Notes under the pieces: model-generated
Databases searched by the model: none
What the model saw: only the letters and a program-made list of their open reading frames with translations
Told to the model about the DNA's origin: nothing
Translations under genes and position numbers: made by a program
Source of the DNA: an uncultured Desulfuromonadales bacterium
GTDB taxonomy: Bacteria; Desulfobacterota; Desulfuromonadia; Desulfuromonadales; Geopsychrobacteraceae
Reading direction: 5' to 3'
Assembly (NCBI GenBank): GCA_947259535.1
Contig: CAMYME010000032.1
Coordinates: 18,649-42,648 of the forward strand
DNA: 24,000 nt
In this document: one piece after another, positions 1 to 19,043 of the stretch
Position numbering within the stretch: the first letter of the stretch is position 1
How the letters are laid out: the number at the start of each line of letters is the position of its first letter

Positions 1-294
1 CTCCTGCAGCAGGACAGCGCTCCGCAAATCTCCAACAGTCTGCTGGCCGATGGCGAGGCGGGCCTGTTCTGTTGGGACCGGAGCGCCCCGACAGTCACCG
101 ACAACCAGATTGTCCGTCAGCAGGAGGAGGGAATTTATCTTGGCCCCGAATGCCGGGCGAAGCTGACCGGCAACCTGATCGAGGCGGTCGATCGTGCCAT
201 CGTCCTGCCTCAGGATGCCGTCATTGACAGCAGTAATCGATTGCAGGCTAATCGGATCGACTTTGCATATTTCCGCCAGGAGGGGAGTCGATGA
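1..294 (+). CDS. C-terminal fragment of a parallel beta-helix (PbH1/NosD-like) repeat protein; the 5' end lies outside the window
   Basis: Frame +1 is open from base 1 to TGA at 292-294. It is absent from the ORF track because it has no start codon in the window. My translation (...TVTDNQIVRQQEEGIYLGPECRAKLTGNLIEAVDRAIVL...) has the same 'N-x-I ... G-I-x-L' periodicity as the next ORF. Its stop overlaps the next start (ATGA at 291-294). Confidence 0.5.
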   Translation, partial: LLQQDSAPQISNSLLADGEAGLFCWDRSAPTVTDNQIVRQQEEGIYLGPECRAKLTGNLIEAVDRAIVLPQDAVIDSSNRLQANRIDFAYFRQEGSR

Positions 295-1355
295 GACGTC
301 TGTTGCTGCTTGTGCTGCTGCTGTTGCCGGCGCCGACGTTTGCATTGCTTCACTACCAAGGGGAGACTTCGCTCTACGAAGATACCGTCTGGGAAGGGGA
401 GGTGCTGATTGACGGAATTCTGACGGTGGCGATGGGGACAACGCTTGAAATCCGCCCCGGAACGGTGGTCCGCTTTACCCGTTTCGACAGTAATTCTGAC
501 CAGATCGGCGAGCATGAGATCTTTATCCAGGGGCGCCTGCTGGCCCTTGGCAGCGCCGAGCAGCCGATCCTCTTCACCTCGGCGGAGACAAGCCCCCGGC
601 CGGGCGACTGGGGGGCGCTGAACATGATGATGAGCGAAGAGGACGGGAACCTGCTCGAACACTGCATCATCGAATACGGCTATCGCGGGTTCCATGCCCA
701 CTTTTCCAAGGGCGAGCTTCGCCACAGCCGGTTCCGCTTCAACCAGCGTGGCGCCCAATTTCAGGAATCTGAGGTTCGCATCGAAGACTGTGATTTCGTC
801 AACAACTTCAATGGTTTGCAGTTCAGAGACGCTACTGTCGCGCTGCTTAATTCCCGAATTCACGACAACCATTGGGGGGTGCGGGCGGTATTCGTCAATT
901 TGCGGATTGAAGGCTGTGAGATCACCGGCAACCGCGTTAACGGCATCAGCCTGCGCGACTCCGATTTCGTTATCGGCAACAACCTGCTGCGCGACAACCG
1001 CCGCGGACTCTATCTGCAGCGCAGCCGCGGGCGGGTGACAGAAAACCGGATTGTCGGGAACCGGGAACATGGCATCTATCTTGAAGATAGTATTGCCGAT
1101 CTGCAGGAAAACCTGCTGGCCGACAACGGACGATCCGGCCTGAAGGTACTAGATTCCGGTGGTGAAGTGATCGGCAATCGGTTTGACGGCAACCACCAGT
1201 TCACGCTGGTCAACGCGGGCGCGGATGATTTCTCCATCGGCGTCAATCAGCTCCCCCTGGTCGGCGCGGAGCTCCTTGACCAACAGGTCCGCCCCGAGCT
1301 CGGTCGGATCGTAGCGCCTGAACCGCTGAAGCGGGCAGCAACCACTGGCCATTAA
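291..1355 (+). CDS. Secreted right-handed parallel beta-helix repeat protein (NosD/CASH/PbH1-like)
   Basis: The 354-aa ORF has an AGGAGGGG Shine-Dalgarno just upstream. The N-terminus is a signal peptide (MRRLLLLVLLLLPAPTFA). It contains many ~22-aa repeats of the type 'I.GN...N...GI.L..S...I..N', for example ITGNRVNGISLRDSDFVIGNNLLRDNRRGLYLQRSRGRVTENRIVGNREHGIYLEDS. Confidence 0.75.
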   Translation: MRRLLLLVLLLLPAPTFALLHYQGETSLYEDTVWEGEVLIDGILTVAMGTTLEIRPGTVVRFTRFDSNSDQIGEHEIFIQGRLLALGSAEQPILFTSAETSPRPGDWGALNMMMSEEDGNLLEHCIIEYGYRGFHAHFSKGELRHSRFRFNQRGAQFQESEVRIEDCDFVNNFNGLQFRDATVALLNSRIHDNHWGVRAVFVNLRIEGCEITGNRVNGISLRDSDFVIGNNLLRDNRRGLYLQRSRGRVTENRIVGNREHGIYLEDSIADLQENLLADNGRSGLKVLDSGGEVIGNRFDGNHQFTLVNAGADDFSIGVNQLPLVGAELLDQQVRPELGRIVAPEPLKRAATTGH

Positions 1356-1377
1356 TTTTCGTATCGAGACAACGAGG

Positions 1378-2283
1378 TTGATTTTGTTTAGACGCAGACT
1401 CCTGATTCTTGCCCTGCTGCTGCCCCTGTTGCTATCCGCCTGTCAGACCCCGGCCGAGCGTCCGGTGATGAAGATCGGCTATATGAACTGCAACAGTGAA
1501 GAAGAGACCCAGAAGCGGTTCAAGCCGCTGACGAAATATCTGTCCGACACGCTGAACGTCGATTTTCAGGCGATTCCGGTCGACACCCAGGATTTCCCGG
1601 AGCGTTTCGCCGCCGGGGAGTTCGAGTTCACCCACACCAATTCGCTGGTTTACGTCATCATGCGCGAGAACCAGCAGATCGAGCTGGTGGCGACCGAAAA
1701 GCGCGGTAATTACGGCACCCACACCGCCGGGGCGATTATCGCCCGCAAGGGGAGCGGGATCGAAAAGCTGGAGGATATCAAGGGTAAGCGGATGATCTTC
1801 GGCCCGCAGCTGGCGCCGAGCGGCTTTCTCGCCCAGTACGACCTGATGCTGCGCGAAGGCCTCGACCCGGAACTGGACCTGGCTTACTACGCGATTCCGT
1901 CCGGCTCGTTCAAACATGAGAAGGTGGTCTACGGGGTCTACTTCGGCCAGTACGACGTCGGCGCTTCGCCGGCTCTTGATCTGGAGCTGATGACCAAGGA
2001 AGGCAAGATCACCGCTGACGATTTCGTCATCCTCGGCCAGAGCCCGATCTTTCCTTACTGCACCTTCGGCGCGCGCAAGGATGTCGATAAGGAACTGGTA
2101 GAAAAGTTCCGTCAGACCCTGGTCGCCCTGACCCATGACGACAGCGTCGAATATCAGGGGGAGAGCCTCAAAGTGCTGGCTTCGGCCTGGATCGATGGTT
2201 TCGAGGCGCTTGAAGACAGCGACTACAACCTGCTGCGGGAGATGGCCAAGCGGGCCAACATGCCGCCTTATCAGGAGTTTTAA
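1378..2283 (+). CDS. PhnD/SsuA-type periplasmic substrate-binding lipoprotein (phosphate/phosphonate-binding-protein fold), with no transporter partner in the window
   Basis: The 301-aa ORF has a signal peptide with a lipobox (LLLSAC). The body resembles the PhnD family (KIGYM...FKPL..YL...L...F...P..., GKRMIFG...S.SG). The start may be TTG 1378 or TTG 1384, and the latter is better spaced from GAGG. No ABC permease or ATPase is adjacent. Confidence 0.65.
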   Translation: MILFRRRLLILALLLPLLLSACQTPAERPVMKIGYMNCNSEEETQKRFKPLTKYLSDTLNVDFQAIPVDTQDFPERFAAGEFEFTHTNSLVYVIMRENQQIELVATEKRGNYGTHTAGAIIARKGSGIEKLEDIKGKRMIFGPQLAPSGFLAQYDLMLREGLDPELDLAYYAIPSGSFKHEKVVYGVYFGQYDVGASPALDLELMTKEGKITADDFVILGQSPIFPYCTFGARKDVDKELVEKFRQTLVALTHDDSVEYQGESLKVLASAWIDGFEALEDSDYNLLREMAKRANMPPYQEF

Positions 2284-2286
2284 TCT

Positions 2287-2826
2287 TTGCTCAAAGACCG
2301 TTTCGACATACTTCTCGGCTGCCTGCTGCTGGTCTGTACCGCGGTGATCGGCGCGCTGCTGCTCGGCGGCGGGTCCCTGGCGTCGCAGCGTGACCTGACG
2401 GTCGACAAGGCGCTCGAGCAGGAGATGGCCTACCAGGCCAAGGTCAGCTTTCTCGAACGGCTCTATGCGCCGGTGACCGAGCTGCGCGCCGACGGACAGA
2501 ACGAAGCGGCGCTGCTCAAGCTCGACGAGCTGTCGCGACGCTACCCGGATGAAGCCCACGGTGAGCTGCTGCGCGGTGAGATTCTCCTGCAGCTGAGCGC
2601 GATCCCGGAAGCGACCAGTCATCTGGCGCGCGCCGTGCGGATGAACGGCGACTATGTCGATCAGCACAGTCCGCTTTCGCGGCGTGAGCTGATCGACCGT
2701 CTGCTGGCAGAAAATCTAACCGGACTGAAACTGCGCGCCAGCAAGAACCCTGCGGCAAGCGGACTGCAGGCGGCGCTGAAAGATCTGTATTATCTTCAAG
2801 GGCGACTGGCCGGGGGCTGTGAGTGA
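2287..2826 (+). CDS. Hypothetical N-terminally membrane-anchored helical (TPR-like) protein
   Basis: The 179-aa ORF starts 3 nt after the previous stop. It has one N-terminal TM helix (ILLGCLLLVCTAVIGALLLGG) followed by an alpha-helical, Leu/Ala/Glu-rich soluble part. I recognise no family. Coding status is supported by tight operon packing and a stop that overlaps the next start. Confidence 0.5.
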   Translation: MLKDRFDILLGCLLLVCTAVIGALLLGGGSLASQRDLTVDKALEQEMAYQAKVSFLERLYAPVTELRADGQNEAALLKLDELSRRYPDEAHGELLRGEILLQLSAIPEATSHLARAVRMNGDYVDQHSPLSRRELIDRLLAENLTGLKLRASKNPAASGLQAALKDLYYLQGRLAGGCE

Positions 2827-3899
2827 TGCGTCTGGCGCTGCGTGATCCGCATACCTGGCTGGTAATGCTGGCCGGAGGGCTGCTGGGGTTGAGCGGCGTC
2901 TGGCTGGCGGTCCTCGGCAACCCGCAGAATTCCGGCATCTGCGTCTCCTGCTTTCTGGAGAACAGCGCCGGGGCGCTTGGTCTGCACGACAACGCCCGCA
3001 TGCAGTATCTGCGGCCGGAATTGATCGGTTTCGTGCTCGGTTCCTTTTTCGCCTCGCTCGGCTTCCGGGAATTCTCCTCCCGCGGCGGCAGCGCTCCTTT
3101 GCCGCGCCTGCTGGCCGGGGTGTTCCTGATCGTCGGCTGCTCGGTCTTTATCGGTTGTCCGATCAAACTGTTTTTACGTTTGGCGGCCGGAGATCTGACC
3201 ACCCTGACCGGCCTGGCCGGGCTGGTGGCCGGCGTCTGGCTGGGGCTCAAGGGACTGGCTGGCGGGGTGCATCTCGGCAGCGCGAACAAACAGCGCGGCG
3301 GCTCCGGCCTCTGGACACCGCTGCTGTTCGTGCTGATGCTGGTGTTTCTGCTGGTTCGGCCCGGCTTTGTTCTCTTCTCTGAGCGCGGCAGCGCGGCGGA
3401 GGCGGCGCCGATGTTGATCGCGCTGGTGATCGGCCTGGTGATCGGGGCGCTGGCGCAACGGACCCGCTTCTGCATCACCGGCAGTCTGCGCGACCTGTTT
3501 ATCATGGGCACCCGCGCGCAGCTGTTCTGGGGTTTTTCGGTCTTTCTTCTGCTCGCTTTCGGCGGTTCGTATCTGACCGGTAATTTCACCCCCGGTCTTT
3601 ACGGTCAGCCGGGTGCGCACCTAGACCTGCTCTGGAGCTTTCTCGGCATGCTGCTGGTCGGGTCGGTTTCGGTACTGATCGGTGGCTGCCCGTTCCGCCA
3701 GCTGATCAAGGCCGGAGAAGGGGATGCCGACGCCGGACTGGTAGTCGTTGGCATGTTCATCGGCGCCGGGCTGGTGCAATCCTGGCAGATCGCCGGGACG
3801 GCGGCCGGGGTGTCGCTTTACGGCAAAGTGGCGGTGGTCGCCGGGTTGGCATTCTTCCTGCTGAATTTGCTGATGTTTCGTGAACGTTCCGCCAGTTGA
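2823..3899 (+). CDS. yedE: YedE-family polytopic membrane protein of the subfamily associated with selenium metabolism (putative Se/S transporter)
   Basis: The 358-aa protein is very hydrophobic, with about 9-10 TM helices. It carries paired Cys motifs as I recall for the selenium-type YedE subfamily: GICVSCF, FIGCPIK, RTRFCITGSLRD and GGCPFRQLIKAGEGD. The GTG 2823 / ATG 2826 start overlaps the upstream TGA (2824-2826). Confidence 0.75.
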   Translation: MMRLALRDPHTWLVMLAGGLLGLSGVWLAVLGNPQNSGICVSCFLENSAGALGLHDNARMQYLRPELIGFVLGSFFASLGFREFSSRGGSAPLPRLLAGVFLIVGCSVFIGCPIKLFLRLAAGDLTTLTGLAGLVAGVWLGLKGLAGGVHLGSANKQRGGSGLWTPLLFVLMLVFLLVRPGFVLFSERGSAAEAAPMLIALVIGLVIGALAQRTRFCITGSLRDLFIMGTRAQLFWGFSVFLLLAFGGSYLTGNFTPGLYGQPGAHLDLLWSFLGMLLVGSVSVLIGGCPFRQLIKAGEGDADAGLVVVGMFIGAGLVQSWQIAGTAAGVSLYGKVAVVAGLAFFLLNLLMFRERSAS

Positions 3900-4240
3900 T
3901 GGCGTTGCATCTGAAAGGGTCGGTTTTGTCGTTATTACAAAGAAATCCGGAAATTGTCTGGCGGCGTGAAAAACGGCGCGAAGAACAGGTGCTCAAAGAG
4001 CTGGAGGAGGGGGGCGAGGTCGCAGAGCGCGGCACGGTGATCCTGCTGATCTCCGGCATGATGCATCAGCTGAACCTGTTGGGCGGCATGATCTGGGATC
4101 TGTGCGACGGCAGCCGCAGCCAGGCGCAGGTGGTCGACCAGCTGCTTGAAGAGTTCGACGTCGAGCGCGCTGAACTCGAAACCGATGTCGCCGAGTTTAT
4201 CGACGACCTGCTGCAACGAGGCTGGCTGATCCATGGTTGA
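3896..4240 (+). CDS. PqqD-family protein (RiPP recognition element / peptide chaperone)
   Basis: The ORF is 113-114 aa. It shows the classic PqqD pattern: NPEIVWRRE...GTVILLISGMMHQLNLLGGMIWDLCDGSRSQAQVVDQLLEEFDVERAELETDVAEFIDDLLQRGWLI. The ATG at 3899 overlaps the yedE TGA (3897-3899). Confidence 0.85.
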   Translation: MMALHLKGSVLSLLQRNPEIVWRREKRREEQVLKELEEGGEVAERGTVILLISGMMHQLNLLGGMIWDLCDGSRSQAQVVDQLLEEFDVERAELETDVAEFIDDLLQRGWLIHG

Positions 4241-5237
4241 TATGACGACCGAACAATTTTCCGCGCCCCTGACTTTCAACTGGACGCTCTCCTATCGCTG
4301 TAACTTCAGCTGCAGCCACTGCTACAGCCGCGACGAGGTGGCCGAAGAGCTTCCGACCGAGCAGATCAAGCAGGTTGTCGATGTGCTCGCCAGGCAGCAG
4401 GTGCCGTTTATCAACTTTGGCGGCGGGGAGCCGCTGATCCGCAACGACCTGCTGGAGATCACCCGCTATGCAACAGCCGAGGGGCTGAACGTCTCGATGA
4501 ACTCCAACGGCTGGCTGCTCGATTATGCCACCGCCCAGGAGCTGAAAGAGGCCGGCTTCAAGAGTGTCGGTATCAGCATCGACAGTGCAACCGGCGCTTC
4601 GCACGACGAGTTCCGCAACATGCCGGGCTCTTTCGAAAAAGCGACCGCCGCCCTGGATGCGCTGCACGCCGCCGGCGTCAGAACCACCATGAGCTCGGTT
4701 ATCTCCAGGATTAACTTCAGGGAATTTCACGCGCTGCTCGATCTGGCCCGCGAACATCATGTGGAACAGGTTTACCTGCACAACTTCAAGTGCAGCGGCC
4801 GCGGCTTCAAAAATCGCGAAGATCTGGACCTGACTCCGCAGGAGTGGAAGGATTTCTACCTCGAGGCGCTTCAGGTCAAGAACGAGACCAAGGACCTGCT
4901 GATCTCCTTCGACGATCCGGTGATCGCCTCATTGCCCGGCTATCAGGATGACTCGCTGGTCAAGGGGAGCAGCTGCGGCAAGTTGTCCCTGCACCTGCGC
5001 CCCAATGGCGACATCACCCCTTGCGGGTTCATTCCATTGGTGGTTGGTAATATTTTGTCAGATGATTTTGAGGATCTATGGTACAATTCCCCTGTTTTAA
5101 CCGCGATGCGCAACAAGGAAGCCAAAGGGAAATGCCAGGGCTGCGGCTCCTACCAGGATTGTCTTGGTGGTTGCACCGCCCGGGCCTTTGCTACCACCGG
5201 CGACCTGAGCGAGCCTGATCCTCATTGTTGGAAATAG
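4233..5237 (+). CDS. Radical SAM / SPASM-domain peptide-modifying enzyme
   Basis: The 334-aa protein has the CxxxCxxC cluster motif (CNFSCSHCYS) and a GGGEPL SAM-binding motif. Its C-terminus has a complete SPASM signature: CGKLSLHLRPNGDITPC, then CQGCGSYQDCLGGC, then a terminal PHC. The start (ATG 4233 or 4242) overlaps or abuts the PqqD stop at 4240. Confidence 0.9.
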   Translation: MVDMTTEQFSAPLTFNWTLSYRCNFSCSHCYSRDEVAEELPTEQIKQVVDVLARQQVPFINFGGGEPLIRNDLLEITRYATAEGLNVSMNSNGWLLDYATAQELKEAGFKSVGISIDSATGASHDEFRNMPGSFEKATAALDALHAAGVRTTMSSVISRINFREFHALLDLAREHHVEQVYLHNFKCSGRGFKNREDLDLTPQEWKDFYLEALQVKNETKDLLISFDDPVIASLPGYQDDSLVKGSSCGKLSLHLRPNGDITPCGFIPLVVGNILSDDFEDLWYNSPVLTAMRNKEAKGKCQGCGSYQDCLGGCTARAFATTGDLSEPDPHCWK

Positions 5238-5272
5238 CCGTTGAAAGTCTCTTTTAACCCGCACAATCGATT

Positions 5273-5277
5273 GGAGG
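5273..5277 (+). promoter_or_regulatory. Shine-Dalgarno (GGAGG) for the 18-codon ORF
   Basis: A perfect GGAGG lies 7 nt upstream of ATG 5285. Confidence 0.6.
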
Positions 5278-5284
5278 TGTCAGC

Positions 5285-5341
5285 ATGAAGAAGTACATGA
5301 AGCCCCGGGTGGTCGGTTCCTCTAACGTTCACCCCTGCTAA
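5285..5341 (+). CDS. Unannotated 18-aa ORF, MKKYMKPRVVGSSNVHPC; candidate precursor peptide for the flanking PqqD/rSAM-SPASM enzymes
   Basis: Hand translation runs from ATG 5285 to TAA 5339-5341. A consensus SD sits at optimal spacing. The ORF lies in the only sizeable gap (5238-5398) of an otherwise gap-free operon, between two maturase paralogs. It is followed 8 nt later by a perfect hairpin. It is too short for the ORF track. Nothing else in the sequence tests whether it is coding. Confidence 0.55.
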   Translation: MKKYMKPRVVGSSNVHPC

Positions 5342-5349
5342 ACGGAACT

Positions 5350-5383
5350 GGGGGGGCAGGTAACTGCCCCCCCAATTCTTTTT
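5350..5383 (+). terminator. Intra-operon intrinsic-terminator-like hairpin (probable partial terminator or transcript-stabilising element)
   Basis: GGGGGGGCAG (5350-5359) pairs perfectly with CTGCCCCCCC (5364-5373). The loop is a GTAA (GNRA-type) tetraloop, and AATTCTTTTT follows (5374-5383). The hairpin sits 8 nt after the small-ORF stop and 15 nt before the next ATG. Confidence 0.65.
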
Positions 5384-5398
5384 CGAGCGAGTTCATTT

Positions 5399-6346
5399 AT
5401 GGCTGTTGACCTGTTGGATGCCCCGCTACGGATCAGTTGGGATCTCTGCCCTGCTGGACAATCCCCACTTTCGAATAACCAACTGCTGCAGGTCGCGAGG
5501 CAGCTGGGCGAGGCCGGTATTTTTTTCGTCACGCTGGAAGACTCCCCGTTAAGGCATCCGCAGATCGGCGAGCTGTTGCAGGAGCTGACCTCGGGCGGTT
5601 GCCAGGTCGCCCTGGTGACTGACGGCTCTGGTGCCGAGCGTGCGGTGCTTGCGCAACTGGAGAGCCAATTCGCGTTGTTTGTCGATGCCGCCAGTTGCAT
5701 TGAAAACCGACGATTGAACGCCGATCTCCTCGGCGAGGTGTTCAGCGAGATCCGCCAGCACCATGCGGAGCCAGCGCTACTCTGGATGCCGAAGCCAGGT
5801 CAGCTGGCTTTGTTGCCGGAATTATTGGTCTTCTGCGCCCGTTGGCAGGTCAGTCATTTTAAGTTGCCAAACCAGAAGATCGGTGCTAATTGTGAAAATT
5901 CCTCAATGCAGACTCTGCCCGACTGTGATGATCTCGACCGGTTGGCAGCGCTGCTCGCGTCTGCAGGCCTGCCTGAGGTTGCTGGTTTGCAGCTGGAAGT
6001 GCACGACCTGTTTATCTGGGAATTGCTGCAGCCGTTGACCGGCGGGCAGAGAAGCGAGTACGGTGGATGTCAGGCGGCCAACAGCCTGGGGCACATCAGC
6101 GGCCAGGCTGAGCTCTGGCCCTGCTCCTCCTGGCCGGAACCGCTCGGTTCCCTGCTGAACGAAGATCTCCTCGATCTCTGGCAGTCGCCGCAGCGGCTGA
6201 AGGTTCGCGAGGAGATCGCCCGACTGCCGCTCGGTTGTGACGGTTGCCGTGACTTCCAGGTCTGTTTCGGCGGCTGTCGCGGCCTTTCCCGCTTCTGCCG
6301 GGACGATGGCCTGGAGCGTGATCTGCTCTGTCGGGAGCGGCGCTGA
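5399..6346 (+). CDS. SPASM-domain protein; a degenerate radical-SAM paralog lacking the CxxxCxxC and GGE motifs
   Basis: The 315-aa N-terminus aligns by eye with the rSAM enzyme (APLRISWDL- versus APLTFNWTLSYRCNFSCSHCYS; FFVTLEDSPL versus FINFGGGEPL), but the SAM-cluster cysteines are deleted. The C-terminus retains the SPASM cysteines: GGCQAANSLGHISGQAELWPC, then CDGCRDFQVCFGGC, then later Cys residues. Confidence 0.8.
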   Translation: MAVDLLDAPLRISWDLCPAGQSPLSNNQLLQVARQLGEAGIFFVTLEDSPLRHPQIGELLQELTSGGCQVALVTDGSGAERAVLAQLESQFALFVDAASCIENRRLNADLLGEVFSEIRQHHAEPALLWMPKPGQLALLPELLVFCARWQVSHFKLPNQKIGANCENSSMQTLPDCDDLDRLAALLASAGLPEVAGLQLEVHDLFIWELLQPLTGGQRSEYGGCQAANSLGHISGQAELWPCSSWPEPLGSLLNEDLLDLWQSPQRLKVREEIARLPLGCDGCRDFQVCFGGCRGLSRFCRDDGLERDLLCRERR

Positions 6347-6355
6347 AAGAACGGT

Positions 6356-7519
6356 TTGATGAGCGATTTGATTTACCTCGATAATGCTGCCACCAGTCAT
6401 CCCAAGCCGGAAGCCGTCTACCGGGCGGTAGAAGACGCCATGCGCATGGGCGCCAGCCCGGGCCGCGGCGGACATCAGCAGGCGCTGTCGGCCGAACGGT
6501 TGGTGTTTGAAACCCGGGAGACACTCGCCAATTTTTTCAACGCCGAGGACTCCGAACAGTTCATCTTTGCTGCCAATGCCACCATGGCGATCAACCAGGC
6601 CCTGTTCGGTATATTGGAGTCCGGCGACCGGGTGGTGACCACCAGCCTGGAGCATAACGCCGTCGCGCGGCCTTTGCGGGCACTGCAGGAGCGCGGCGTC
6701 AGGGTCGAAAAGGTCGCTGCCGGGCCGGATGGGGTCGTTGCCGCTGAAGCGTTGAAAGAATCCTGTCTGGCAGAGAAAACCAGGCTGCTGGTTGTCAATC
6801 ACTGCTCGAATGTCTATGGCGCCCTGCAGCCGATCGAAGGGCTGGGAAACTGGTGCCGTGAACAGGGCATTCTGTTTATGGTTGATGGCTCGCAGAGCGC
6901 CGGTTATTTCCCCATCGATTTTCAGGCTTTGGCTGTCGATCTGTTCGCAGCTCCCGGCCATAAAGGTCTGCTCGGGCCGCAGGGGACCGGTTTTTTGTAT
7001 GTGCGCAAGGGGTTGCAGCTGACCCCATTAATCTATGGCGGCACAGGCGCGAACTCCGGTTCCGACCTGCCTCCCGAGCATCTCCCAGAGCGACTCGAAT
7101 GCGGCACCCTGAACACCCCTGGTCTTGGCGGACTGAAGGCGGCGCTTGAGTTTTTGCAGGGAGTTGGCGTAGAACAGGTTCGCAAGCATGAGCTGCAGGC
7201 GATCAATAGAATATTGAATGGGCTCGGCAACATCGAAGCTGTAACCCTCTACGGGCCGGAATCTGCGACACAGCGCGGCACCGCCATCTCTTTCAATCTG
7301 CAGGGGCGTGATCCGTCCGAGGTCGGTTTCTTACTCGACCAGCAGTATAACATCAGCCTGCGGGTCGGCCTGCATTGCGCCCCCGACGCTCATCGCAGCA
7401 TCGGGACCTATCCGCTGGGAACAGTGCGGGTGAGCCCCGGCTATTTCACCACGGAATCTGAAATCGACACTTTCCTTGGCGCGATTCGTGACCTTGCTCA
7501 CAACCGCGCTAAAAGCTGA
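6356..7519 (+). CDS. Class-V aminotransferase-fold PLP enzyme; cysteine desulfurase / selenocysteine lyase family
   Basis: The ORF is about 386 aa, and the likely start is ATG 6359. The N-terminus is IYLDNAATSHPKP...GASPGRGGH. The PLP-lysine motif is APGHKGLLGPQGTGFLY. The active-site Cys lies in RVGLHCAPDAH. It starts 10-13 nt after the SPASM gene. Confidence 0.8.
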   Translation: MMSDLIYLDNAATSHPKPEAVYRAVEDAMRMGASPGRGGHQQALSAERLVFETRETLANFFNAEDSEQFIFAANATMAINQALFGILESGDRVVTTSLEHNAVARPLRALQERGVRVEKVAAGPDGVVAAEALKESCLAEKTRLLVVNHCSNVYGALQPIEGLGNWCREQGILFMVDGSQSAGYFPIDFQALAVDLFAAPGHKGLLGPQGTGFLYVRKGLQLTPLIYGGTGANSGSDLPPEHLPERLECGTLNTPGLGGLKAALEFLQGVGVEQVRKHELQAINRILNGLGNIEAVTLYGPESATQRGTAISFNLQGRDPSEVGFLLDQQYNISLRVGLHCAPDAHRSIGTYPLGTVRVSPGYFTTESEIDTFLGAIRDLAHNRAKS

Positions 7520-7547
7520 CTGGCAGATTCTCAAAAGGAATGCGATA

Positions 7548-7820
7548 ATGAGATCAATAACCCGCTCTCTCCCGGTTCTGATGGTCCTGGTGTTTCTGCT
7601 CTCCTGTTCATTACCGCCCGAACAGCCGGTGACCCGGAAGATGCTTAAAGCGTCGGGTGTTTATCGCACCTTCAAAATCGAAGAGTCACCGGAAGAGCTG
7701 CTCAATGCTCTCAATGTCGAGGGTGAGGTGGTGATAAAGGCGCTTGAGAGCAACAGGCCGGTTTTCGTCAAGATCCTGGCGACCGCCGAAGGGCTGCAGG
7801 TCACCACCTACGACCGCTGA
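7548..7820 (+). CDS. Small hypothetical lipoprotein
   Basis: I prefer ATG 7548 (with AAAGGAA upstream) to the track start at 7476. It gives MRSITRSLPVLMVLVFLLSC, a signal peptide plus lipobox. The protein is 90 aa and I recognise no family. Confidence 0.5.
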   Translation: MRSITRSLPVLMVLVFLLSCSLPPEQPVTRKMLKASGVYRTFKIEESPEELLNALNVEGEVVIKALESNRPVFVKILATAEGLQVTTYDR

Positions 7821-7870: not shown

Positions 7871-9187
7871 ATGAAAAATTATGTTCTGGATACCAATGTC
7901 CTGCTGCATGATCCTCAAGCGATTTTTAAATTTTCCGACAATAACGTTATTATTCCGCTGACCGTCATCGAAGAGATCGATCGGTTTAAAAAGGAACAGA
8001 GTGAAACCGGCCGCAACGCCCGCCAGATCTCCCGGATGGTCGACGAATTCCGCGCCCACAACAGCCTGGTCGAAGGGGTTCCGCTGGAAAGCGGCGGGAC
8101 GCTGAAAGTCGCCATTTACCGCGAGGAATTCCTGAAGAAATTGCCGCCGGAGTTGCGCGTCGACCGTGGCGACAACCGGATCCTGGCGGTCGCTAAAGAT
8201 CTGGAGGAGAACCTGCCGGAAGGTTCGGTTTTCTTTATCACCAAGGACATCAACCTGCGCATCAAGGCCGATACCATCGGCATGATCGCCGATGATTACC
8301 TGAACGACAAGATTGCCATCGACGATCTTTACACCGGGACCACTGAGCTGCATGTCGATCGTGACGCGGTCGACCTGTTTTTCGAGCAGGGCTATCTCGA
8401 CCTTGAGGAAGAGTATAATTCGAATCAGGGAATTACCCTGATCGATGCGGGGAACCCATCTCATTCGGCGATCGGCCGTTACGATGCCCTGAACCAGCGC
8501 CTGACCACTCTGCTGCGGGTGCCCAAGGAAGGGGTCTGGGGGATTCATCCGCGCAATCGCGAGCAACAGTTCGCCTTCGACTTGCTGCTCAACGACGACA
8601 TCCAACTGGTCTCGCTGGTCGGCAAGGCGGGCACCGGGAAAACCCTGCTGGCGATCGCTGCCGGGTTGTTCAAGACCGCCGATGAAAGCATCTACAGCCG
8701 GCTGCTGGTTTCCCGCCCGGTCTTCCCCATGGGTCGCGACCTCGGGTTCCTGCCCGGCGACGTCGAGGAAAAGCTGGCACCCTGGATGCAGCCGATATTC
8801 GATAATGTCGAGCTGCTGCTGTCCAGTGTCGAGGAGGGTGGCAAGCGCAAGCGTGGCTATCGTGAATTGATCGATCTCGGCCTGATGGAAATCGAGCCGC
8901 TGACCTATATTCGTGGTCGCTCCATCCCGCGGCAGTACATGATTGTCGACGAAGCGCAGAACTTGACACCGCACGAAATCAAAACCATTATTACCCGCGC
9001 CGGGGAGGGGACCAAGATCGTCCTGACCGGCGACCCGTACCAGATCGATAATCCCTACGTCGATTCTTCGAGCAACGGCCTGACCTATGCGGTCGAGCGG
9101 CTCAAAGGGCAGGAGATTGCCGGTCACATGACGTTAAGCAAAGGCGAACGTTCCTCCCTGGCGGAATTGGCGGCAAACCTTCTCTAG
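7871..9187 (+). CDS. PIN-domain / PhoH-like ATPase fusion protein (PhoH2/YlaK type)
   Basis: The 438-aa protein has an N-terminal PIN signature (YVLDTNVLLHDP...IIPLTVIEEID). It also has PhoH Walker A (GKAGTGKT) and Walker B-like (IVDEAQNLT) motifs and the C-terminal GDPYQID motif. Confidence 0.85.
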   Translation: MKNYVLDTNVLLHDPQAIFKFSDNNVIIPLTVIEEIDRFKKEQSETGRNARQISRMVDEFRAHNSLVEGVPLESGGTLKVAIYREEFLKKLPPELRVDRGDNRILAVAKDLEENLPEGSVFFITKDINLRIKADTIGMIADDYLNDKIAIDDLYTGTTELHVDRDAVDLFFEQGYLDLEEEYNSNQGITLIDAGNPSHSAIGRYDALNQRLTTLLRVPKEGVWGIHPRNREQQFAFDLLLNDDIQLVSLVGKAGTGKTLLAIAAGLFKTADESIYSRLLVSRPVFPMGRDLGFLPGDVEEKLAPWMQPIFDNVELLLSSVEEGGKRKRGYRELIDLGLMEIEPLTYIRGRSIPRQYMIVDEAQNLTPHEIKTIITRAGEGTKIVLTGDPYQIDNPYVDSSSNGLTYAVERLKGQEIAGHMTLSKGERSSLAELAANLL

Positions 9188-9204
9188 CTCAGAATTGCAT
9201 TTCG

Positions 9205-10224
9205 ATGTTGTTATTAGCCCTGGAAAGCTCCTGTGACGAAACCGCCGCTGCGGTTGTTCGTGACGGCACCGCTGTTCTCTCCAACCTGATCGCTTCGCAG
9301 GCCGATCTGCACGCCGTTTATGGCGGCGTCGTACCCGAGCTGGCATCTCGACGTCACCTTGAAGTGATCAATCCGCTGGTCGAAGCGGCGCTCAATCAGG
9401 CCGATGTCACTCAGGGCGACCTCGATGGCGTGGTGGTGACACGTGGTCCCGGACTGATCGGGGCACTGCTGGTCGGACTTTCGTTTGCCAAGGCCTTCGC
9501 CTATGCCCGTCAGATTCCGTTGGTCGGGGTTCACCACATCGAGGGGCACATCCTTGCCATCCAACTGGAAAAAAAGGTCGAATATCCCTTCCTGGCCGCT
9601 GCGGTCTCCGGAGGGCATACCCATCTGTTTCGGGTCGATGGTATCGGCCAGTACCGGCTGCTGGGACGGACGGTGGATGACGCTGCCGGTGAGGCCTTCG
9701 ATAAGGTCGCCAAGATGCTCAAGCTTGGTTATCCCGGTGGCCCGATTATTGACAAACTGGCTTCCAGCAGTGACGACGGCGGAATCGTCTTCCCCAGGCC
9801 GATGCTGAAAAAAGAGAATTACGATTTCAGTTTTTCCGGCATGAAGACCGCTGTGCTCAATTATCTCCACTCGCTAACCGGTGAGCCGGACGAGCGGCAG
9901 ATCGCACAAATCTCCGCAGCCTTTCAGACCGCCGTGGTCGATGTGCTGACGAAAAAAGCGCTGCGCGCCGCCGCAGCCGAAGGGCTGAACCGGATTGTCG
10001 TTGCTGGCGGAGTGGCCTGCAACAGCGGTTTGCGCCGTCGTTTCGCAGAGCTTGCCGAGCAAAACCAGCTCGAGGTGCATTTCCCTTCACCGATCCTCTG
10101 TGCCGATAATGCGGCCATGCTCGCAGTGGCAGGGGAGCACTATCTGACCCAGGGTTTCCGCTCTGGCCTCGACCTCAACGCTGTTTCTAGCTGGCCGCTG
10201 GAGCAGGCCGCCTGTTTCCCCTGA
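9205..10224 (+). CDS. tsaD: tRNA N6-adenosine threonylcarbamoyltransferase
   Basis: The 339-aa protein has LALESSCDETAAAV at the N-terminus, the VGVHHIEGH metal-binding motif and the GGVACN motif. Its length is typical of TsaD (Gcp/YgjD). Confidence 0.9.
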   Translation: MLLLALESSCDETAAAVVRDGTAVLSNLIASQADLHAVYGGVVPELASRRHLEVINPLVEAALNQADVTQGDLDGVVVTRGPGLIGALLVGLSFAKAFAYARQIPLVGVHHIEGHILAIQLEKKVEYPFLAAAVSGGHTHLFRVDGIGQYRLLGRTVDDAAGEAFDKVAKMLKLGYPGGPIIDKLASSSDDGGIVFPRPMLKKENYDFSFSGMKTAVLNYLHSLTGEPDERQIAQISAAFQTAVVDVLTKKALRAAAAEGLNRIVVAGGVACNSGLRRRFAELAEQNQLEVHFPSPILCADNAAMLAVAGEHYLTQGFRSGLDLNAVSSWPLEQAACFP

Positions 10225-11664: not shown

Positions 11665-14600
11665 ATGAAAGTGACTGTTGCCCGCGGCGGACAATTGTCC
11701 GAAGGTCATGACGCAGCATTCCAGAATGTGAAACTCGAAGCCGAATTGAAACGCCTTGGGCAGGAGGAGTGGTTAGAGAAGCTCATCCAGCTGGCGGACC
11801 TGCTGCGAGTACAGATTCCGGAAAATTACCTGGTATCCCTCGATTCTGCAGAGTTGGCGCAACGCCTGATCAGTGTCGGAAACTTTCTCCGGCAGCGGGA
11901 CAGCGAAATCAAAGTCGAGCTGATCCCCTTGGCGACGCCGGGTCATTACTCGCTGTTCTGCAGCGCTCCCGATGCCAATCATATTTTTTCCTCGGTTCAA
12001 GAATACCTGCAGCGTAAATCGCTGCACTTTCGTGTTATCTGCCATCCGATCTTCTCTGTCGAGCGCCATGCCGGGACCTTGAACCGGCTTACCGAGGGGG
12101 ACAGTTCGCTGGAGAGAGAGTCGTTCATCTGGATGGAGCTCGAACGGTTGCCGGTCCGCCTGATCGAAGAGCTCAAGCAGGGCGTCGCGATGATCGTCGC
12201 GGCAGCTTTGCAGACTTATCGCCACCGCGAGCAGACCTGCCAAAGGATTGATGGGCTGCGACAGATTCCCAACCTTGCCCGGTATGCCGATCTTTTCGAC
12301 TGGCTGATGGAGGACAATTTCATCCCGGTCGCCAGCCGCTGCTATCATTTCGCCGGTGGCGACCCGCAGGCTGCACTGGTCGAAGAACCTGAGTATGCTC
12401 TCGGGCTGGCTGAGCTTTATGATCAGCCGTTCGATGTCCATATTCAACCGGTGCCACTGGCTCCCCAGCTGATTGAATCGATGGTGCGGCACAGCGGCGA
12501 TGTCGCTTTGGAAAAAACCGAGCTGCGGTGCCCGCTGCACCGTTTCGAGCGTTTGACGTACATCGGCTTTCGCGAGACTCTGCCTGCTGGCGGCTACCGC
12601 GAACATGCCTTCTGGGGGTTTTATACCCAGCAGAGCATCGATGCCAATACCTACTCGATTCCGGCCCTGCGGCAACGGATCGAGACCATTCAGGCTCAGC
12701 TGAACATCCTGCACGACAGCCATAACTATCGGAAAACCGTTCAGATTTTCAACACATTTCCCAAGGTCGAGCTGTTTTTGATGGGGGATGACGAACTGCG
12801 CCGGATGATGCGCTCGTTCACCCAGATGCATCGCCAGGCGGGGGTCAAGGTGGTGGTCGCGCCCAGCATGTCTGAGCACGGCCTGACCCTGCTGTTGATC
12901 ATGCCAAAGGACTTCTACTCGCCGGACCATCTCTCGCGCATCGAAACCTACCTGCGCCGCTATTTTCGCGCGACTTCAGTCGAGTCGCGACTGATCCATC
13001 TTTCGTCGGACTATCTGAGCCTGCATGTCAATTTGCGACTGAATAAGAGCGAAGTCCATATCGAAATCCAGCAACTCGAACAGGGGCTGACCAGGCTGGC
13101 GCTGCCTTGGAAGCTGAAGTTTCGGGACCTGCTGGAAAAGAACTTCGCCGCCGATTCCTTCGATATCTGGGAGCGCTACATCAAGGCCTTTGACAATGAC
13201 TACCGGGCCCGCACCCACCCGCGCTTTGCCGTTCGCGATGTCCGCAATATCGAACAATTGCTGCGCGAAGAGCAGGACTTTTTCGATATCTGGGGTCCGT
13301 TTCACGAGCGCGATGATTACTACCGCCTGCAGTATTACAGCTTGCAGGAAAGCTACCTCAATGACCTGATGCCGTTCCTGGAAAACCTCGATCTGTACGT
13401 AATCGAGGAAGTCGATTTCACCATCGCCATTACCGACCGGACGGCTTATATCAAGAGCTTCGCCATCCGCCCGAGAACGACGACCGCGTTTGATTTCAAG
13501 GAACTTCGGGATTTGCTGCTGAATACCTTGTCGGCGATGAAGAAGAAAGAGGTCGAAAATGATTATCTGCATCGCCTGTTGCCGCTTACGGCTCTAACCT
13601 GGCGGCAGATTGATGTTTTTCGCGCCTATCGCAACTATTATTTTCAGCTCGGCTGCCCCTTTACCAAAAAACGTGTTGCGTACGCGCTGATCAACAATGC
13701 CCGTGTGGCGCTGCTGCTTTACCGATATTTTGCCGGGCGCTTCAAGCCGGCTGAAGAATGGGCCGACCCGATGACGCGTGAGCTGGAAGTGCTCTCGCCG
13801 ATCCGGCAGGAGCTGGCTGCGGCTCTTGAGGAGGTCAGTGACAGCAACGAAGACAGGATTCTGCGCACCCTGTTCAACCTGATCGATTCAACGGTGCGAA
13901 CCAATTTCTTCCTGCGCAGTGAAAGCGACGATTATTTCATCTCCTTCAAGGTCAGTTCGCTCGGCGTCATCGACATGCCGGCGCCGCGTCCGCTGTACGA
14001 GGTCTACGTCCATTCAGCGACCATGGAGGGAATCCACCTGCGCGGCGGCAAGGTCGCCCGTGGCGGCATCCGCTGGTCTGACCGCCCGGACGACTTCCGC
14101 ACCGAGGTGCTCGGCCTGGTCAAAGCGCAAATGACCAAAAACGCCGTGATTGTTCCGGTCGGCTCCAAGGGTGGTTTTGTGACTAAAAAGACCAGCCCCA
14201 ACCGCGAGCGCATGGGCGAACTGGTGAAACAGGCCTATCAGACCCTGATGCGCGGGCTGCTCGACCTGACCGACAACCGGACACCTGAAGGGGTCATCCG
14301 GCCGCCGGGAATCATCGCCTACGACGATCAGGATCCCTACCTGGTGGTGGCCGCCGACAAGGGTACAGCGCACCTGCCCGACACCGCCAACGCGGTCAGC
14401 GAGTCGTACAACTTCTGGCTGGGCGATGCGTTCGCCAGCGGCGGTTCCCACGGTTACGACCACAAGAAGCTGGGGATCACCGCCCGCGGCGCCTGGGAGA
14501 GCGTCAAACGGCTGTTCCGCGAGATGGGGCACGATACCCAGTCCGAACCCTTTAGCGTGGTCGGCATCGGCGACATGAGCGGCGATGTGTTCGGCAACGG

Positions 14601-16428
14601 CATGCTGCTGTCGGAGAAGATCAAGCTGAAGGCGGCGTTCAATCACCTGCACATCTTCCTCGATCCCGATCCGGACCCGGAGGTGTCATTCAAGGAGCGA
14701 CAGCGGCTCTTCAACCTGCCGCGCTCAACCTGGCAAGACTATAACCCGGAGCTGATCTCCGCCGGCGGCGGGGTCTTCTCCCGTCAGGCCAAGGAGGTCA
14801 AGATCTCCCCGCAAGTGGCTGAATGGCTCGGGATCCGGCAGACCTCGCTCGATGTGCCGACCCTGATTCAGCTGTTACTGAAATCTCAGGTCGACCTGCT
14901 CTGGAACGGCGGAATCGGCACTTATGTGAAGTCTTCGCAGGAGAAGCACGAGGATGCTGGTGACCGGGCCAATGATATCGTGCGAATCAACGCCACCGAC
15001 CTGCAGGCCAAGGTGGTCGGCGAGGGGGGGAATTTGGGGATGACCCAGCTGGCGCGGATCGAGTATGCCAGGCTCGGCGGCAAGTTGAACACCGACGCGA
15101 TCGACAATTCGGCGGGTGTCGACAGCTCAGACCATGAGGTCAACCTGAAAATCCTGCTCAAGCTGTTACTGCAAAAAGACCGACTGGCCACGATGGAGGC
15201 CGGCTACCAGTTGCTGGAAGAGATCGAGGAGACGGTCTGCCGCGACGTGCTGTCCAACAACTACCATCAGACGCTGTCGATATCCCTTGATGAGATCCGC
15301 TGCCTGTCCGATGTCGAGCCCTACCTGGAATTGATGGACCGCCTCGGGCGCTCCGGATTGCTCGATCGGCGCGACGAGTTTTTACCCTCTCGCAAGGATG
15401 TGGCCGCCCGCCAGCCGAACCGGCTGCTGCGGCCGGAGCTCTCGGTGCTGCTGGCCTACAGCAAGATGTTCCTCTATCGTGCGCTGCAGGAGAGCGAGCT
15501 GCCGGAGAACCGGGTGGTCAAGCAGCTGCTGCTCGATTATTTCCCGCAGGAAGTGGAGGAACGCTACCGGGACATTCTGCCTGAGCACCCGCTGGCAAAA
15601 GAGATCACCGCCACCATGCTGACCAACCGGGTTGTCGACCAGGCGGGCAGCACCTTCTGCCAGACCCTCAGTCGCTTGACCGGCCAGAACCAGGTTGCCG
15701 TGGCGGTGGCCTATCTGATTTACGACAGCCTGCTCAACGGGCATGAACTGCGCGGGGCGATCTTCGCTCTCGACTGCCGTATGCCTGCCAAGCGGCAATA
15801 TCAGCTGTTGCTCAAACTTGAAGAGGTGCTGCGTTCGTTCTGCCTCTTCACCCTGAGCAATGGCGTTGCGCTGCCGGATGATGAAGCGGCCCTGGAGATG
15901 ATTTCTGAACAGCTCGATCAGTATCTCGAGCTGCTGCCCAAAGTGCTCTCAAAAGACGAATGGCAGATTTTTGAGACAGATCGGGAAAATCTACAAGCAG
16001 AAGGCCTCTCAGCTGAAATGGCGCTGAAATTTACCGCCCTCGATTACCTGGTCGATTTTATGCCGCTGGTCTGCATGATTCCGCAATCGGGGCAGGATCT
16101 GGAAAAACTGGCGCGCCTGAATGTCATGATCGAGACAAGGATCAATGCCGAAAGCCTGATCATGTCATTGGAGAAGGTGCCGGTGCGCGACAGCTGGGAC
16201 CGGCGGGCCCGTGAGTCCTTGCTCGGCTCGCTGCACTCTGTTATGGTGCGCCTGGTTCAGCAGGTCGCTAATGAAGCGGCGGAAGACCCGCAGAGTTTTT
16301 TCCGCAAGCGTCGGCAGAAGTTGCGGACCTTCGAAGAACTGCGTGACAGCCTGCTGACCGAAACTCCGTCGAATTTTCACCCTTACACCGTACTGCTGCG
16401 CTCCCTGGAAGGTCTTTTAGTCGGATAG
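11665..16428 (+). CDS. gdhB: Large (~180 kDa class) NAD-specific glutamate dehydrogenase
   Basis: The 1587-aa ORF has an AAGGGAG SD. Catalytic-core motifs of the Bac_GDH family are present: [70 protein letters not shown] and [11 protein letters not shown]. Confidence 0.9.
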   Translation: [1587 protein letters not shown]

Positions 16429-17087: not shown

Positions 17088-17400
17088 AAATTCAGAATCG
17101 GCACCGAATGCCGCCGTCTCATGAAAAGGTGGTGGACAAGTAAAACAGCGGTATGATATACCGTAAACGCTTTTTTGCGGGGCTGCATCACTTTGTGAGC
17201 CTCAAGCACGTGAGCAGGCCGGCTGGCCCGGGACAGGTACCGGAGCCGAGAATCTGACTTGCTTGCGTCTGCGACATACCGCCTGGATCTCATGGGACCG
17301 GGACGGAAGGTGAGCAGTTTTTCAGGGGAATCCCTGAGGTTTAGGAATGCCTTCCGTTTTAGCGCGGTGGGCATTTTTTGTTAAAGGCAGGAAAATACAA

Positions 17401-18147
17401 GTGAAAAAGCGCAAGACAATCCTCGATATCGGACAGCTGAAGGAGCAGGGCGAGAAGATCACGGTCCTGACCGCGTACGATTATCCTTTCGCCAAATTGA
17501 TGGATCAGGCCGGCATCGATATGATCCTGGTCGGCGACTCGGTCGGCTCGGTGGTCTCCGGCTACGAGAACACCCTGCCGGTCACCCTCGACGAAATGAT
17601 CTACCACACCCGCGCGGTTGTCCGCGGCAGCGAGCAGGCGCTGGTGATCACCGATATGCCGTTCATGTCCTATCAGACCGATATCCGCGACGCCCGACTC
17701 AATGCCGGCAGGTTGATCAAGGAAGGCGCGGCCCAGGCGGTCAAGCTGGAAGGCGGCGAGCATATCGCCGAGACGATCCGGGCGATCGTCGACATCGACA
17801 TCCCGGTGGTCGGGCACATCGGCCTGACACCCCAGTCGATCCACCGCATGGGCGGCTTCAAGGTGCAGGGGCGTCAGGAAGGCGTGGTACTCGAAGGGAT
17901 CCCGCGCGACCTCGCCAAGGAAGTGACCGAGTCTCTCAGCATTCCGACCATCGGCATCGGCGCCGGGGTCGACTGCGACGGCCAGGTGCTGGTGATCCAC
18001 GACATCCTCGGCCTGTGCGACAAATACTCCCCCAAGTTCGTCAAACGCTACGCCGACGTCTCCGGAACCATTTCTGCGGGGATCGGCGAGTATATCCGTG
18101 AGGTCAAGGCCGGCGAGTTTCCGACCCTTGACCACTCCTTCAAGTAA
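17401..18147 (+). CDS. panB: 3-methyl-2-oxobutanoate hydroxymethyltransferase (ketopantoate hydroxymethyltransferase); appears internally shortened
   Basis: Family motifs are present: [31 protein letters not shown] and [19 protein letters not shown] prefer GTG 17401 (VKKRKTILD..., preceded by AGGCAGGA) over ATG 17347, which lies inside a leader hairpin. See the finding on a missing ~19-aa segment after KVQGR. Confidence 0.8.
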
Positions 18148-18151
18148 GCCC

Positions 18152-19003: not shown

Positions 19004-19043
19004 CCCATTGCCGAGTCGCTAGCGGCAACCAACCCGGTATCTC

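Follow-up and report, generated by a model that had tools for sequence, protein, structure and literature searches.

What can a radical S-adenosylmethionine (SAM) protein still contribute once the site that cleaves SAM is gone, and which partners would it serve? This question is raised by a 24,000-nucleotide stretch of DNA from an uncultured Desulfuromonadales bacterium (contig CAMYME010000032.1, positions 18,649 to 42,648), which is called the window throughout. At positions 5399-6346 it carries an intact open reading frame (ORF) for a protein of 315 amino acids (aa), encoded downstream of an active radical SAM (rSAM) enzyme of the GeoRSP system. An earlier note, made from the letters of this DNA, described the protein as an rSAM paralog that has lost its SAM-cleaving cluster and kept the cysteines of its SPASM auxiliary iron-sulfur (Fe-S) clusters. 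Profile comparisons, structure prediction and the analysis of related loci now allow this description to be sharpened. We lean towards the view that the protein, itself inert towards SAM, serves as an Fe-S accessory subunit in a machinery for peptide maturation, whose other components would be a PqqD-family chaperone, the GeoRSP rSAM enzyme and the small peptide MKKYMKPRVVGSSNVHPC.

The paralog and its lost SAM site

Is the 315-aa protein related to its neighbour over its full length? A direct BLASTP comparison aligns the C-terminal 80 residues only (32% identity, E 2e-9), that is, the SPASM part. Family alignments were therefore built: A1 with 42 homologs of the 315-aa protein, A2 with 25 orthologs of the neighbouring rSAM enzyme, and A3 with 28 sequences across distant clades, down to 22-28% identity. 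Through such profiles, and through structure, the N-terminal homology becomes visible. Comparing A1 with A2, hhalign pairs residues 2-297 with residues 5-318 at a probability of 99% (E 4.2e-18), and DAPLRISWDL pairs with SAPLTFNWTL exactly as the earlier note had aligned them by eye. The homology is truly full-length: the 315-aa protein is a paralog of the rSAM/SPASM enzyme next to it, here also called its partner. The elements on which the comparison turns are the following:

5399..6346, plus strand: pseudo-radical-SAM/SPASM protein (pseudo-rSAM), 315 aa, divergent representative of the GeoRSP system SPASM domain proteins
5447..5452, plus strand: codons of C17 and P18, the point at which 13 residues (RCNFSCSHCYSRD) are lost relative to the partner (hhalign)
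5534..5551, plus strand: LEDSPL, residues 46-51, degenerate counterpart of the SAM-binding GGGEPL (GGE) motif (hhalign)
6068..6124, plus strand: C224 to C242, upstream SPASM cysteine pair (EYGGCQA...WPC), invariant, equivalent to partner C248 and C264
6236..6277, plus strand: SPASM block C280-x2-C283-x5-C289-x3-C293 (CDGCRDFQVCFGGC), invariant, equivalent to partner C301, C304, C310 and C314
6329..6331, plus strand: C311, the seventh SPASM cysteine, invariant, equivalent to partner C332
4233..5237, plus strand: the partner, an active radical SAM/SPASM enzyme, GeoRSP system rSAM, 334 aa (TIGR04303, 452.7 bits against a cut-off of 400; PF04055, PF13186)

The predicted architecture is a partial TIM barrel in the N-terminal half, without the SAM cluster, followed by a SPASM domain in the C-terminal half. 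In the AlphaFold2 model (pLDDT 87.7, pTM 0.88) strands and helices alternate over residues 11-201 before the SPASM region begins. Foldseek searches of the PDB return rSAM proteins as all of the top matches, namely SuiB, PqqE, anSME, BlsE and SkfB (E 2e-11 to 7e-8, TM 0.55-0.70), with SuiB, PqqE and anSME at E 2e-11 to 4e-9 and TM 0.57-0.70. With the A1 profile, residues 21-311 align to SuiB (5v1q; E 1e-11) and residues 16-311 to PqqE (6c8v; E 1e-8), both alignments starting right after the position of the SAM-cluster loop. Model, Foldseek and profile thus all recover the rSAM core fold, a partial (beta/alpha)6 TIM barrel. With profile matches that are nearly full-length, and with rSAM proteins at the top of the Foldseek list, the protein is a derivative of a complete rSAM/SPASM enzyme and not a free-standing SPASM domain.

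Against this shared framework the loss of the SAM site stands out, and here the reading by eye was borne out in its details. A single 13-residue gap in the hhalign alignment takes out exactly RCNFSCSHCYSRD of the partner, and with it CxxxCxxC. The partner's GGGEPL is paired with E-DSPL, in which P50 is invariant and L51 nearly invariant across A1. The 315-aa protein has no PF04055 match at E<=0.1. Every sequence requirement for a SAM-binding cluster (CxxxCxxC, the GGE motif, PF04055) is therefore missing, which confirms the earlier claim that the SAM-cleaving site has been lost. Judged by its sequence, the protein cannot have a canonical SAM-cleaving [4Fe-4S] cluster, and since that cluster is not bound it would form no 5'-deoxyadenosyl radical.

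Could the missing motif lie elsewhere? The ORF opens with ATG and the N-terminus MAVDLLDAPLR, which matches the N-termini of 41 homologs in the alignment, so that no upstream CxxxCxxC segment has been overlooked. A hidden upstream exon or a frameshift carrying the motif was considered and rejected: the gap between the rSAM stop and the start of the ORF measures 161 nt and holds only a peptide gene and a hairpin, and the N-termini agree. Every cysteine column of the N-terminal half was also inspected in the 42 close and 28 distant sequences for an alternative three-cysteine SAM site, and no conserved triad was found. Within A1, C17 is present in 43% (18/42), C68 in 88% and C146 in 95%, other cysteines being rare; C68 and C146 are common within the clade, and across the clades of A3 no cysteine of this half is kept.

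The cysteines of the C-terminal half behave differently. The active partner has 11 cysteines that are invariant among its 25 orthologs, three in the SAM site and eight auxiliary ones (C23, C27, C30; C187, C248, C264, C301, C304, C310, C314, C332). In the 315-aa protein the SPASM block and the upstream pair C224/C242, both pointed out in the earlier note, are invariant in 42/42 close homologs and in 28/28 sequences of A3, as is C311. Together they form the seven-cysteine SPASM motif C-x(9-17)-C ... C-x2-C-x5-C-x3-C ... C, and all but one of the 42 homologs match TIGR04085 at E<=1e-5. The claim that the auxiliary cysteines were kept thus stands for these seven and fails for the eighth, as the invariant C187 of the partner aligns with I161. 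With seven of eight retained, one cluster would be left with three cysteines: the set would suffice for one fully cysteine-ligated cluster and a second one with three cysteine ligands.

Conservation extends beyond the cysteines. At 42-67% identity, A1 contains 44 invariant columns, among them the non-cysteine motifs PxRxxW, KLPN and HDxFxW as well as EYGGCQA, a pattern that points to purifying selection on the 315-aa protein.

The family and its genomic neighbourhood

The earlier note considered such a protein unusual. This part of its description does not hold, as a named family exists, embedded in a wider clade of ~300-aa proteins without a SAM cluster. The best NCBIfam match is TIGR04304, "GeoRSP system SPASM domain protein" (E 4.2e-29, 101.6 bits against a cut-off of 300), which aligns end to end (residues 6-311 versus 2-292 of 293 profile positions). 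TIGR04304 is also the best match for all 42 homologs, none of them better than E 1.7e-34 and all under 300 bits. The cut-off is passed, at 309-350 bits, by a subgroup with the N-terminal pattern MNLKEL...PIRIYWDL, to whose passing members the 315-aa protein is 22-28% identical. Many homologs already carry the GeoRSP SPASM name at JGI and NCBI, for example in Desulfuromonas versatilis; those of Malonomonas rubra and Geopsychrobacter are labelled merely "SPASM domain-containing protein".

An exhaustive profile search enlarged this picture to 79 clusters (50% identity) at E<=1e-30 and 588 at E<=1e-10. Only 3 of 143 new cluster representatives have CX3CX2C within their first 140 residues; nearly all others are ~300 aa long, start with M..L..P[LI]R..WD and contain the SPASM block. 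The 315-aa protein thus belongs to a Desulfuromonadales sister clade of the canonical TIGR04304 family, within an old and sizeable SPASM lineage devoid of the SAM cluster. In the literature searched we found no paper describing GeoRSP or the models TIGR04302-04304, and phrases such as "pseudo radical SAM" returned nothing relevant. The pseudo-enzyme has accordingly been catalogued already, as a member of a family that is named in databases and uncharacterised. Some SAM-cluster-less SPASM members stand alone, at L064 6998-7897 (MTHFR/FolD), at L071 688-1566 (DUF1178) and at L069 3268-4164 beside a two-component system and a sigma factor (L numbers denote related loci). They suggest that the family has functions beyond GeoRSP.

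In the window, the paralog pair is part of a longer cassette:

291..1355, plus strand: secreted right-handed beta-helix (NosD-like) protein, first of the co-directional block (PF13229, PF05048)
1378..2283, plus strand: PhnD-like periplasmic oxyanion-binding lipoprotein (PF12974, E 1.5e-52; weak match to the putative selenate substrate-binding protein model TIGR04553)
2287..2826, plus strand: membrane-anchored TPR-like protein, 179 aa, ending in ...LYYLQGRLAGGCE before the stop (weak TPR matches)
2823..3899, plus strand: YedE-family putative selenium transporter (TIGR04112, 393 bits against a cut-off of 200); its stop overlaps the PqqD start
3896..4240, plus strand: PqqD-family peptide chaperone (TIGR04302 as best-scoring model, 94.3 bits against a cut-off of 100; PF05402 clear)
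5285..5341, plus strand: 18-codon gene for MKKYMKPRVVGSSNVHPC, candidate precursor peptide, between the two paralogs (ATG to TAA, GGAGGTG upstream as ribosome-binding site)
5349..5385, plus strand: GC-rich hairpin with a T-run directly behind the peptide gene, resembling a terminator or attenuator (9 GC pairs among 11)
6356..7519, plus strand: class-V aminotransferase-fold cysteine desulfurase or selenocysteine-lyase-like enzyme (TIGR01977, 446.5 bits against a cut-off of 377)

From 291 to 7519 the genes are co-directional, with overlaps or very short gaps. The 3' end of the PqqD gene overlaps the rSAM start by 8 nt, and the desulfurase gene begins 9 nt past the stop codon of the pseudo-rSAM. 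Against the SclA model the desulfurase scores 316.7 bits (cut-off 525); the E. faecalis SclA has a preference for selenocysteine compared with cysteine (bioRxiv 10.1101/2020.02.07.939272).

How widely is this arrangement kept? This order of genes is shared by 64 genome loci, essentially all from metagenome-assembled genomes and isolates of Desulfuromonadales type, and in essentially all complete genome loci the rSAM gene lies directly upstream of the relative of the 315-aa protein. A metagenome search anchored on the rSAM, and thus independent of the 315-aa protein, retrieved 51 loci with enough downstream DNA; in 45 of them a relative directly follows the rSAM. A complementary loss of cysteines in rSAMs without a nearby relative was looked for and rejected, as all of them retain the 3 + 8 pattern.

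More informative are three canonical GeoRSP loci from other lineages (L065, L072, L073), which encode a PhnD-like protein, a ~176-aa protein, a YedE-like (Sulf_transp) transporter, PqqD, the rSAM and the pseudo-rSAM. The first 4-11 nt of the pseudo-rSAM gene overlap the end of the rSAM gene there. The ~176-aa protein has the size and position of the 179-aa TPR-like protein and ends in YYL.R.AGSCG. Among the 175-179-aa TPR-like proteins (window 2287-2826; L065 2277-2807; L072 2609-3139; L073 2655-3182) the ending YYL.R.AG[SG]C[GE], followed by the stop, occurs in both GeoRSP clades; this protein, with its conserved C-terminal cysteine, may work with the transporter in a thiol relay. The PhnD-like gene is conserved in canonical loci. 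The beta-helix gene is syntenic in Desulfuromonadales loci and was not seen in canonical ones, and its membership in the system is uncertain.

Directly behind the pseudo-rSAM, the desulfurase is encoded in virtually every Desulfuromonadales locus, as well as in L060, L062, L116, L118, L122 and L124, so that this adjacency recurs in three clades. L060 (6986-7969 and 8251-9396) and L062 (7001-8011 and ~8160-9300) each pair a SAM-cluster-less homolog (28-31% identity) with a desulfurase homolog (43-44%). An in-frame TAA at 7442-7444 interrupts the L062 homolog. Read-through by selenocysteine was considered in this context and rejected, the sole in-frame stop among the homologs being this TAA and not TGA.

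Arsenic-resistance-type genes recur near GeoRSP-type rSAMs. Canonical cassettes contain an ArsP_1 permease (610-634 aa) and a cupin; at L127 4614-7032 the rSAM is followed by ArsR, an SBF (bile-acid)/ACR3-type transporter and ArsP_1, with no relative of the 315-aa protein downstream; and L130 has an ArsR gene at 6536-6895. Such neighbours hint at a metalloid link. Further along, the window encodes on the plus strand a putative 114-aa lipoprotein without a Pfam or NCBIfam family (7476-7820), a possible member of the system that comes after the desulfurase and keeps its synteny in most related loci, and housekeeping genes for a PIN-PhoH ATPase (7871-9187), an NAD-specific glutamate dehydrogenase of 1587 aa (11665-16428), and panB, panC and a decarboxylase dependent on pyridoxal phosphate (17347-20711).

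The proposed role and its rivals

What could the paralog pair act on? The small gene between the two offers a candidate. Keeping its strand throughout, it is conserved in about 100 related loci: 55 of the 64 genome loci have it, as do 42 out of 80 metagenome loci, where the sequence is often truncated. Its core follows the pattern [VIT][GSA]S[SGAT][NS][VI]HPC, directly before the stop. Among 53 distinct DNA versions the column entropies sum to 20.1 for third codon positions and to 5.0 for first and second ones, and the codon differences comprise 9039 synonymous versus 3486 non-synonymous ones. The peptide also occurs where the rSAM is just ~54-55% identical, as MKIKYIQPKIVGSSNIHPC in L141 and MKKIPYVKPRIAGTSSVHPC in L142. 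In L142, from a high-GC lineage, the peptide gene ending in MKKIPYVKPRIAGTSSVHPC (~4514-4573) follows the rSAM and no SAM-inert relative was found within 3.5 kb, so that rSAM and peptide can go together where the SAM-inert protein is not nearby. No NCBIfam model matches the peptide, N-terminally extended versions included, and its motif was absent from the literature searched; with 18 codons it is probably too short to be reported by gene callers as a rule.

We consider it quite probable that MKKYMKPRVVGSSNVHPC is the substrate of the system, because a short basic leader encoded next to PqqD and an rSAM/SPASM enzyme is the standard arrangement for rSAM-modified peptides. A caveat to this assignment is that four Desulfuromonadales loci and the canonical loci are without the peptide in the locus DNA examined; no HPC-type peptide was found in that of L065, L072, L073, L018, L039, L057, L061, L060 and L062. 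The hairpin after the peptide gene has a free energy of -30 kcal/mol (z -4.6) and is present in 11 of 11 related loci inspected, with differing stem sequences. It may set the ratio of peptide to enzyme expression, or split the operon before the pseudo-rSAM/desulfurase pair.

How would a SAM-inert subunit contribute to such a machine? PqqD would present the leader (MKKYxKPxVV) to the rSAM enzyme, which would carry out the radical step on the GSSNVHPC core, and the pseudo-enzyme would dock to the complex of PqqD, rSAM and peptide. Both this complex formation and Fe-S binding, with two clusters of which one has an open or non-cysteine site, are expected rather than observed. From here the mechanism could take two directions. 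The clusters of the pseudo-enzyme might relay to the rSAM the electron required from one turnover to the next. Alternatively, the open iron of the three-cysteine cluster might hold a thiolate or selenide ligand, with the invariant C-terminal cysteine of the peptide, or sulfur or selenium from the adjacent desulfurase/lyase, as candidates. The exact role may be electron relay, thiolate binding or handling of sulfur and selenium.

Precedents for both directions come from PapB. Its auxiliary cluster AC1 has three cysteine ligands, and one auxiliary cluster binds the cysteine thiol of the substrate (PMC10470005). The re-reduction of its SAM cluster proceeds by intermolecular electron transfer, and cluster-bearing variants without the RS cluster are still able to reduce a different rSAM enzyme by passing electrons to it (PMC10470005). 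On this basis, a paralog that carries clusters on a separate chain could serve as a dedicated redox partner.

Several observations weigh against an accessory subunit of this kind. The 315-aa protein diverges much faster than the rSAM (median identity 42% versus 75% across 50 loci). This could mean relaxed constraint; it fits a loss of catalytic constraint and weakens the claim of a precise catalytic role. The protein itself stays below the cut-offs of the SPASM models, with 24.6 against 27 for TIGR04085 and 16.6 against 21.5 for PF13186, and the three-cysteine open site holds only if C187 of the partner really is a cluster ligand. Genomic context speaks both for and against the roles suggested in the earlier note (partner or scaffold, electron conduit, carrier of a sulfur or selenium donor cluster), and it adds further reservations. 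Distant family members are solitary or lie in unrelated contexts without an rSAM (L064, L069, L071), and no rSAM or PqqD was found within 7 kb of the L060 and L062 pairs. Six of the 51 rSAM-anchored loci, with more distant rSAMs, have no relative of the 315-aa protein within 3.5 kb, among them L127, and L142 with its peptide, so that the pseudo-enzyme is not obligatory everywhere. In the canonical loci neither a desulfurase nor a detectable HPC peptide was found nearby. Finally, much of the synteny is confined to one order and reaches the housekeeping genes PhoH and TsaD. Part of the conserved order may therefore reflect simple relatedness, or phylogenetic inertia, and it should not be over-read.

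The top-rated rival, which we nevertheless regard as improbable, takes the 315-aa protein for an independent Fe-S protein whose real partner is the desulfurase or selenocysteine lyase, the adjacency to the rSAM being secondary; the protein would then accept persulfide or perselenide, or would scaffold or carry clusters, in YedE-linked sulfur/selenium trafficking. The 9-nt spacing of the two genes speaks for such a partnership, as do the persistence of the pair in L060 and L062 without a nearby rSAM or PqqD, its recurrence in a third clade (L116, L118, L122, L124), the terminator-like hairpin that parts the peptide gene from the pair, and the family members without any rSAM. This does not sit well with the canonical loci, where the pseudo-rSAM overlaps the rSAM translationally and the desulfurase is absent, nor with the 45 of 51 rSAM-anchored loci in which a relative directly follows the rSAM. 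The fold, moreover, is that of a peptide-modifying rSAM/SPASM enzyme and not that of the scaffolds IscU, SufU or NifU.

Next in rank, and still less probable, is a neofunctionalised non-radical enzyme that would act on the peptide in a second step after the rSAM, for example by cyclisation or elimination at the C-terminal HPC, using the old barrel cavity together with R11, K155, N158, H202, D203, E220, Y221 and Q225. The barrel is modelled confidently, and strictly conserved non-cysteine polar motifs line both the barrel and its junction with the SPASM domain; across distant clades H202, F205 and Q225 are invariant and D203 and R11 nearly so. Several of these positions, however, correspond to conserved structural ones in the active partner (FDDP versus VHDL, for example), and no family of non-radical enzymes emerges as similar from NCBIfam, Pfam or Foldseek.

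The radical SAM superfamily does include non-canonical cluster motifs, and the frequent C68 and C146 of the clade could recall a cryptic active rSAM with its SAM-cleaving cluster on unconventional ligands; yet these are only two partly conserved cysteines, neither kept across clades, and with the whole cluster loop deleted, the GGE motif lost and PF04055 unmatched, we give this very little credence. That the gene is a decaying, functionless relic of a duplication is hardly credible at all: the faster evolution and the in-frame TAA in the distant L062 homolog are set against an ORF intact in dozens of lineages, the 44 invariant columns, 79 clusters of the same architecture at E<=1e-30 and a confident fold prediction.

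If the accessory subunit is the preferred reading, what might the machine produce? A doubtful option is a small, near-invariant peptide cofactor or metallophore made from ...VGSSNVHPC, with chalcogen or metalloid chemistry such as the insertion or exchange of sulfur or selenium at HPC. The YedE/PhnD-like uptake module would feed the SclA-like lyase, from which the SAM-inert paralog would receive sulfur or selenium and pass it to the radical intermediate made by the rSAM. If this were true, radical generator and chalcogen donor would be split over two proteins, functions that reside in one chain in biotin synthase, lipoyl synthase and PapB. No obvious export or immunity genes were seen in the GeoRSP cassette, and a cofactor-like product would thus fit better than an antibiotic.

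What is new here is the conserved 18-codon candidate precursor gene and the recurrence of neighbours related to sulfur, selenium and metalloids. With them GeoRSP, so far an orphan system, becomes experimentally approachable: it gains in MKKYMKPRVVGSSNVHPC a concrete, synthesisable candidate substrate and a defined set of components, namely PqqD, the rSAM, the SAM-inert paralog and the lyase. Testable now are the function of a SAM-cluster-less SPASM protein and the possibility that auxiliary clusters work in trans as a dedicated subunit. A hint of sulfur, selenium or metalloid biochemistry in metal-reducing Desulfuromonadales and relatives of Geobacter comes from the recurrent YedE, PhnD-like and SclA-like proteins, together with the ArsP, ArsR and bile-acid/ACR3-type transporter genes that related loci carry.

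Relation to known systems

The concept of an rSAM/SPASM homolog without a true SAM site has been named before, in TIGR04347, the pseudo-SAM/SPASM model of Halobacteria. This model has 390 positions and belongs to another lineage and system. The 315-aa protein has no match to it at E<=0.01 (cut-off 525 bits), 6 of the 42 homologs match weakly (best E 2.8e-8), and the neighbouring active rSAM matches better (156 bits).

PapB/CteB-type thioether maturases of ranthipeptides and sactipeptides have a SPASM domain with a three-cysteine auxiliary cluster, a feature that the 315-aa protein would share. PapB binds a substrate cysteine on an auxiliary cluster, and the GeoRSP candidate precursor also has an invariant cysteine. 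These enzymes, however, keep CxxxCxxC and the SAM site and perform their own chemistry, whereas the cluster-bearing module found here is a separate SAM-inert polypeptide.

Mycofactocin (MftA, the PqqD-like MftB and the rSAM/SPASM enzyme MftC) resembles GeoRSP in its short, highly conserved precursor with the critical residue at the C-terminus, and both systems have a PqqD-family chaperone. MftC is among the closest characterised relatives of the GeoRSP rSAM, which scores 199 bits against its model (cut-off 265). The mycofactocin precursor ends in GVY, that of GeoRSP, if correctly assigned, in HPC; and the mycofactocin system is not known to have a SAM-inert paralog.

Like the 315-aa protein, the canonical TIGR04304 members have ~300 aa, an N-terminal P-x-R-x-x-W-D, no CxxxCxxC and the seven-cysteine SPASM pattern, and their genes likewise lie directly after the TIGR04303 rSAM and PqqD, with a PhnD-like substrate-binding protein, a ~176-aa protein and a YedE-like transporter upstream. 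The two clades differ in what surrounds this shared core: the clade of the window has a peptide gene and a hairpin between the paralogs and a desulfurase downstream, while in canonical loci the two paralog genes overlap and the cassette includes an ArsP_1 permease and a cupin.

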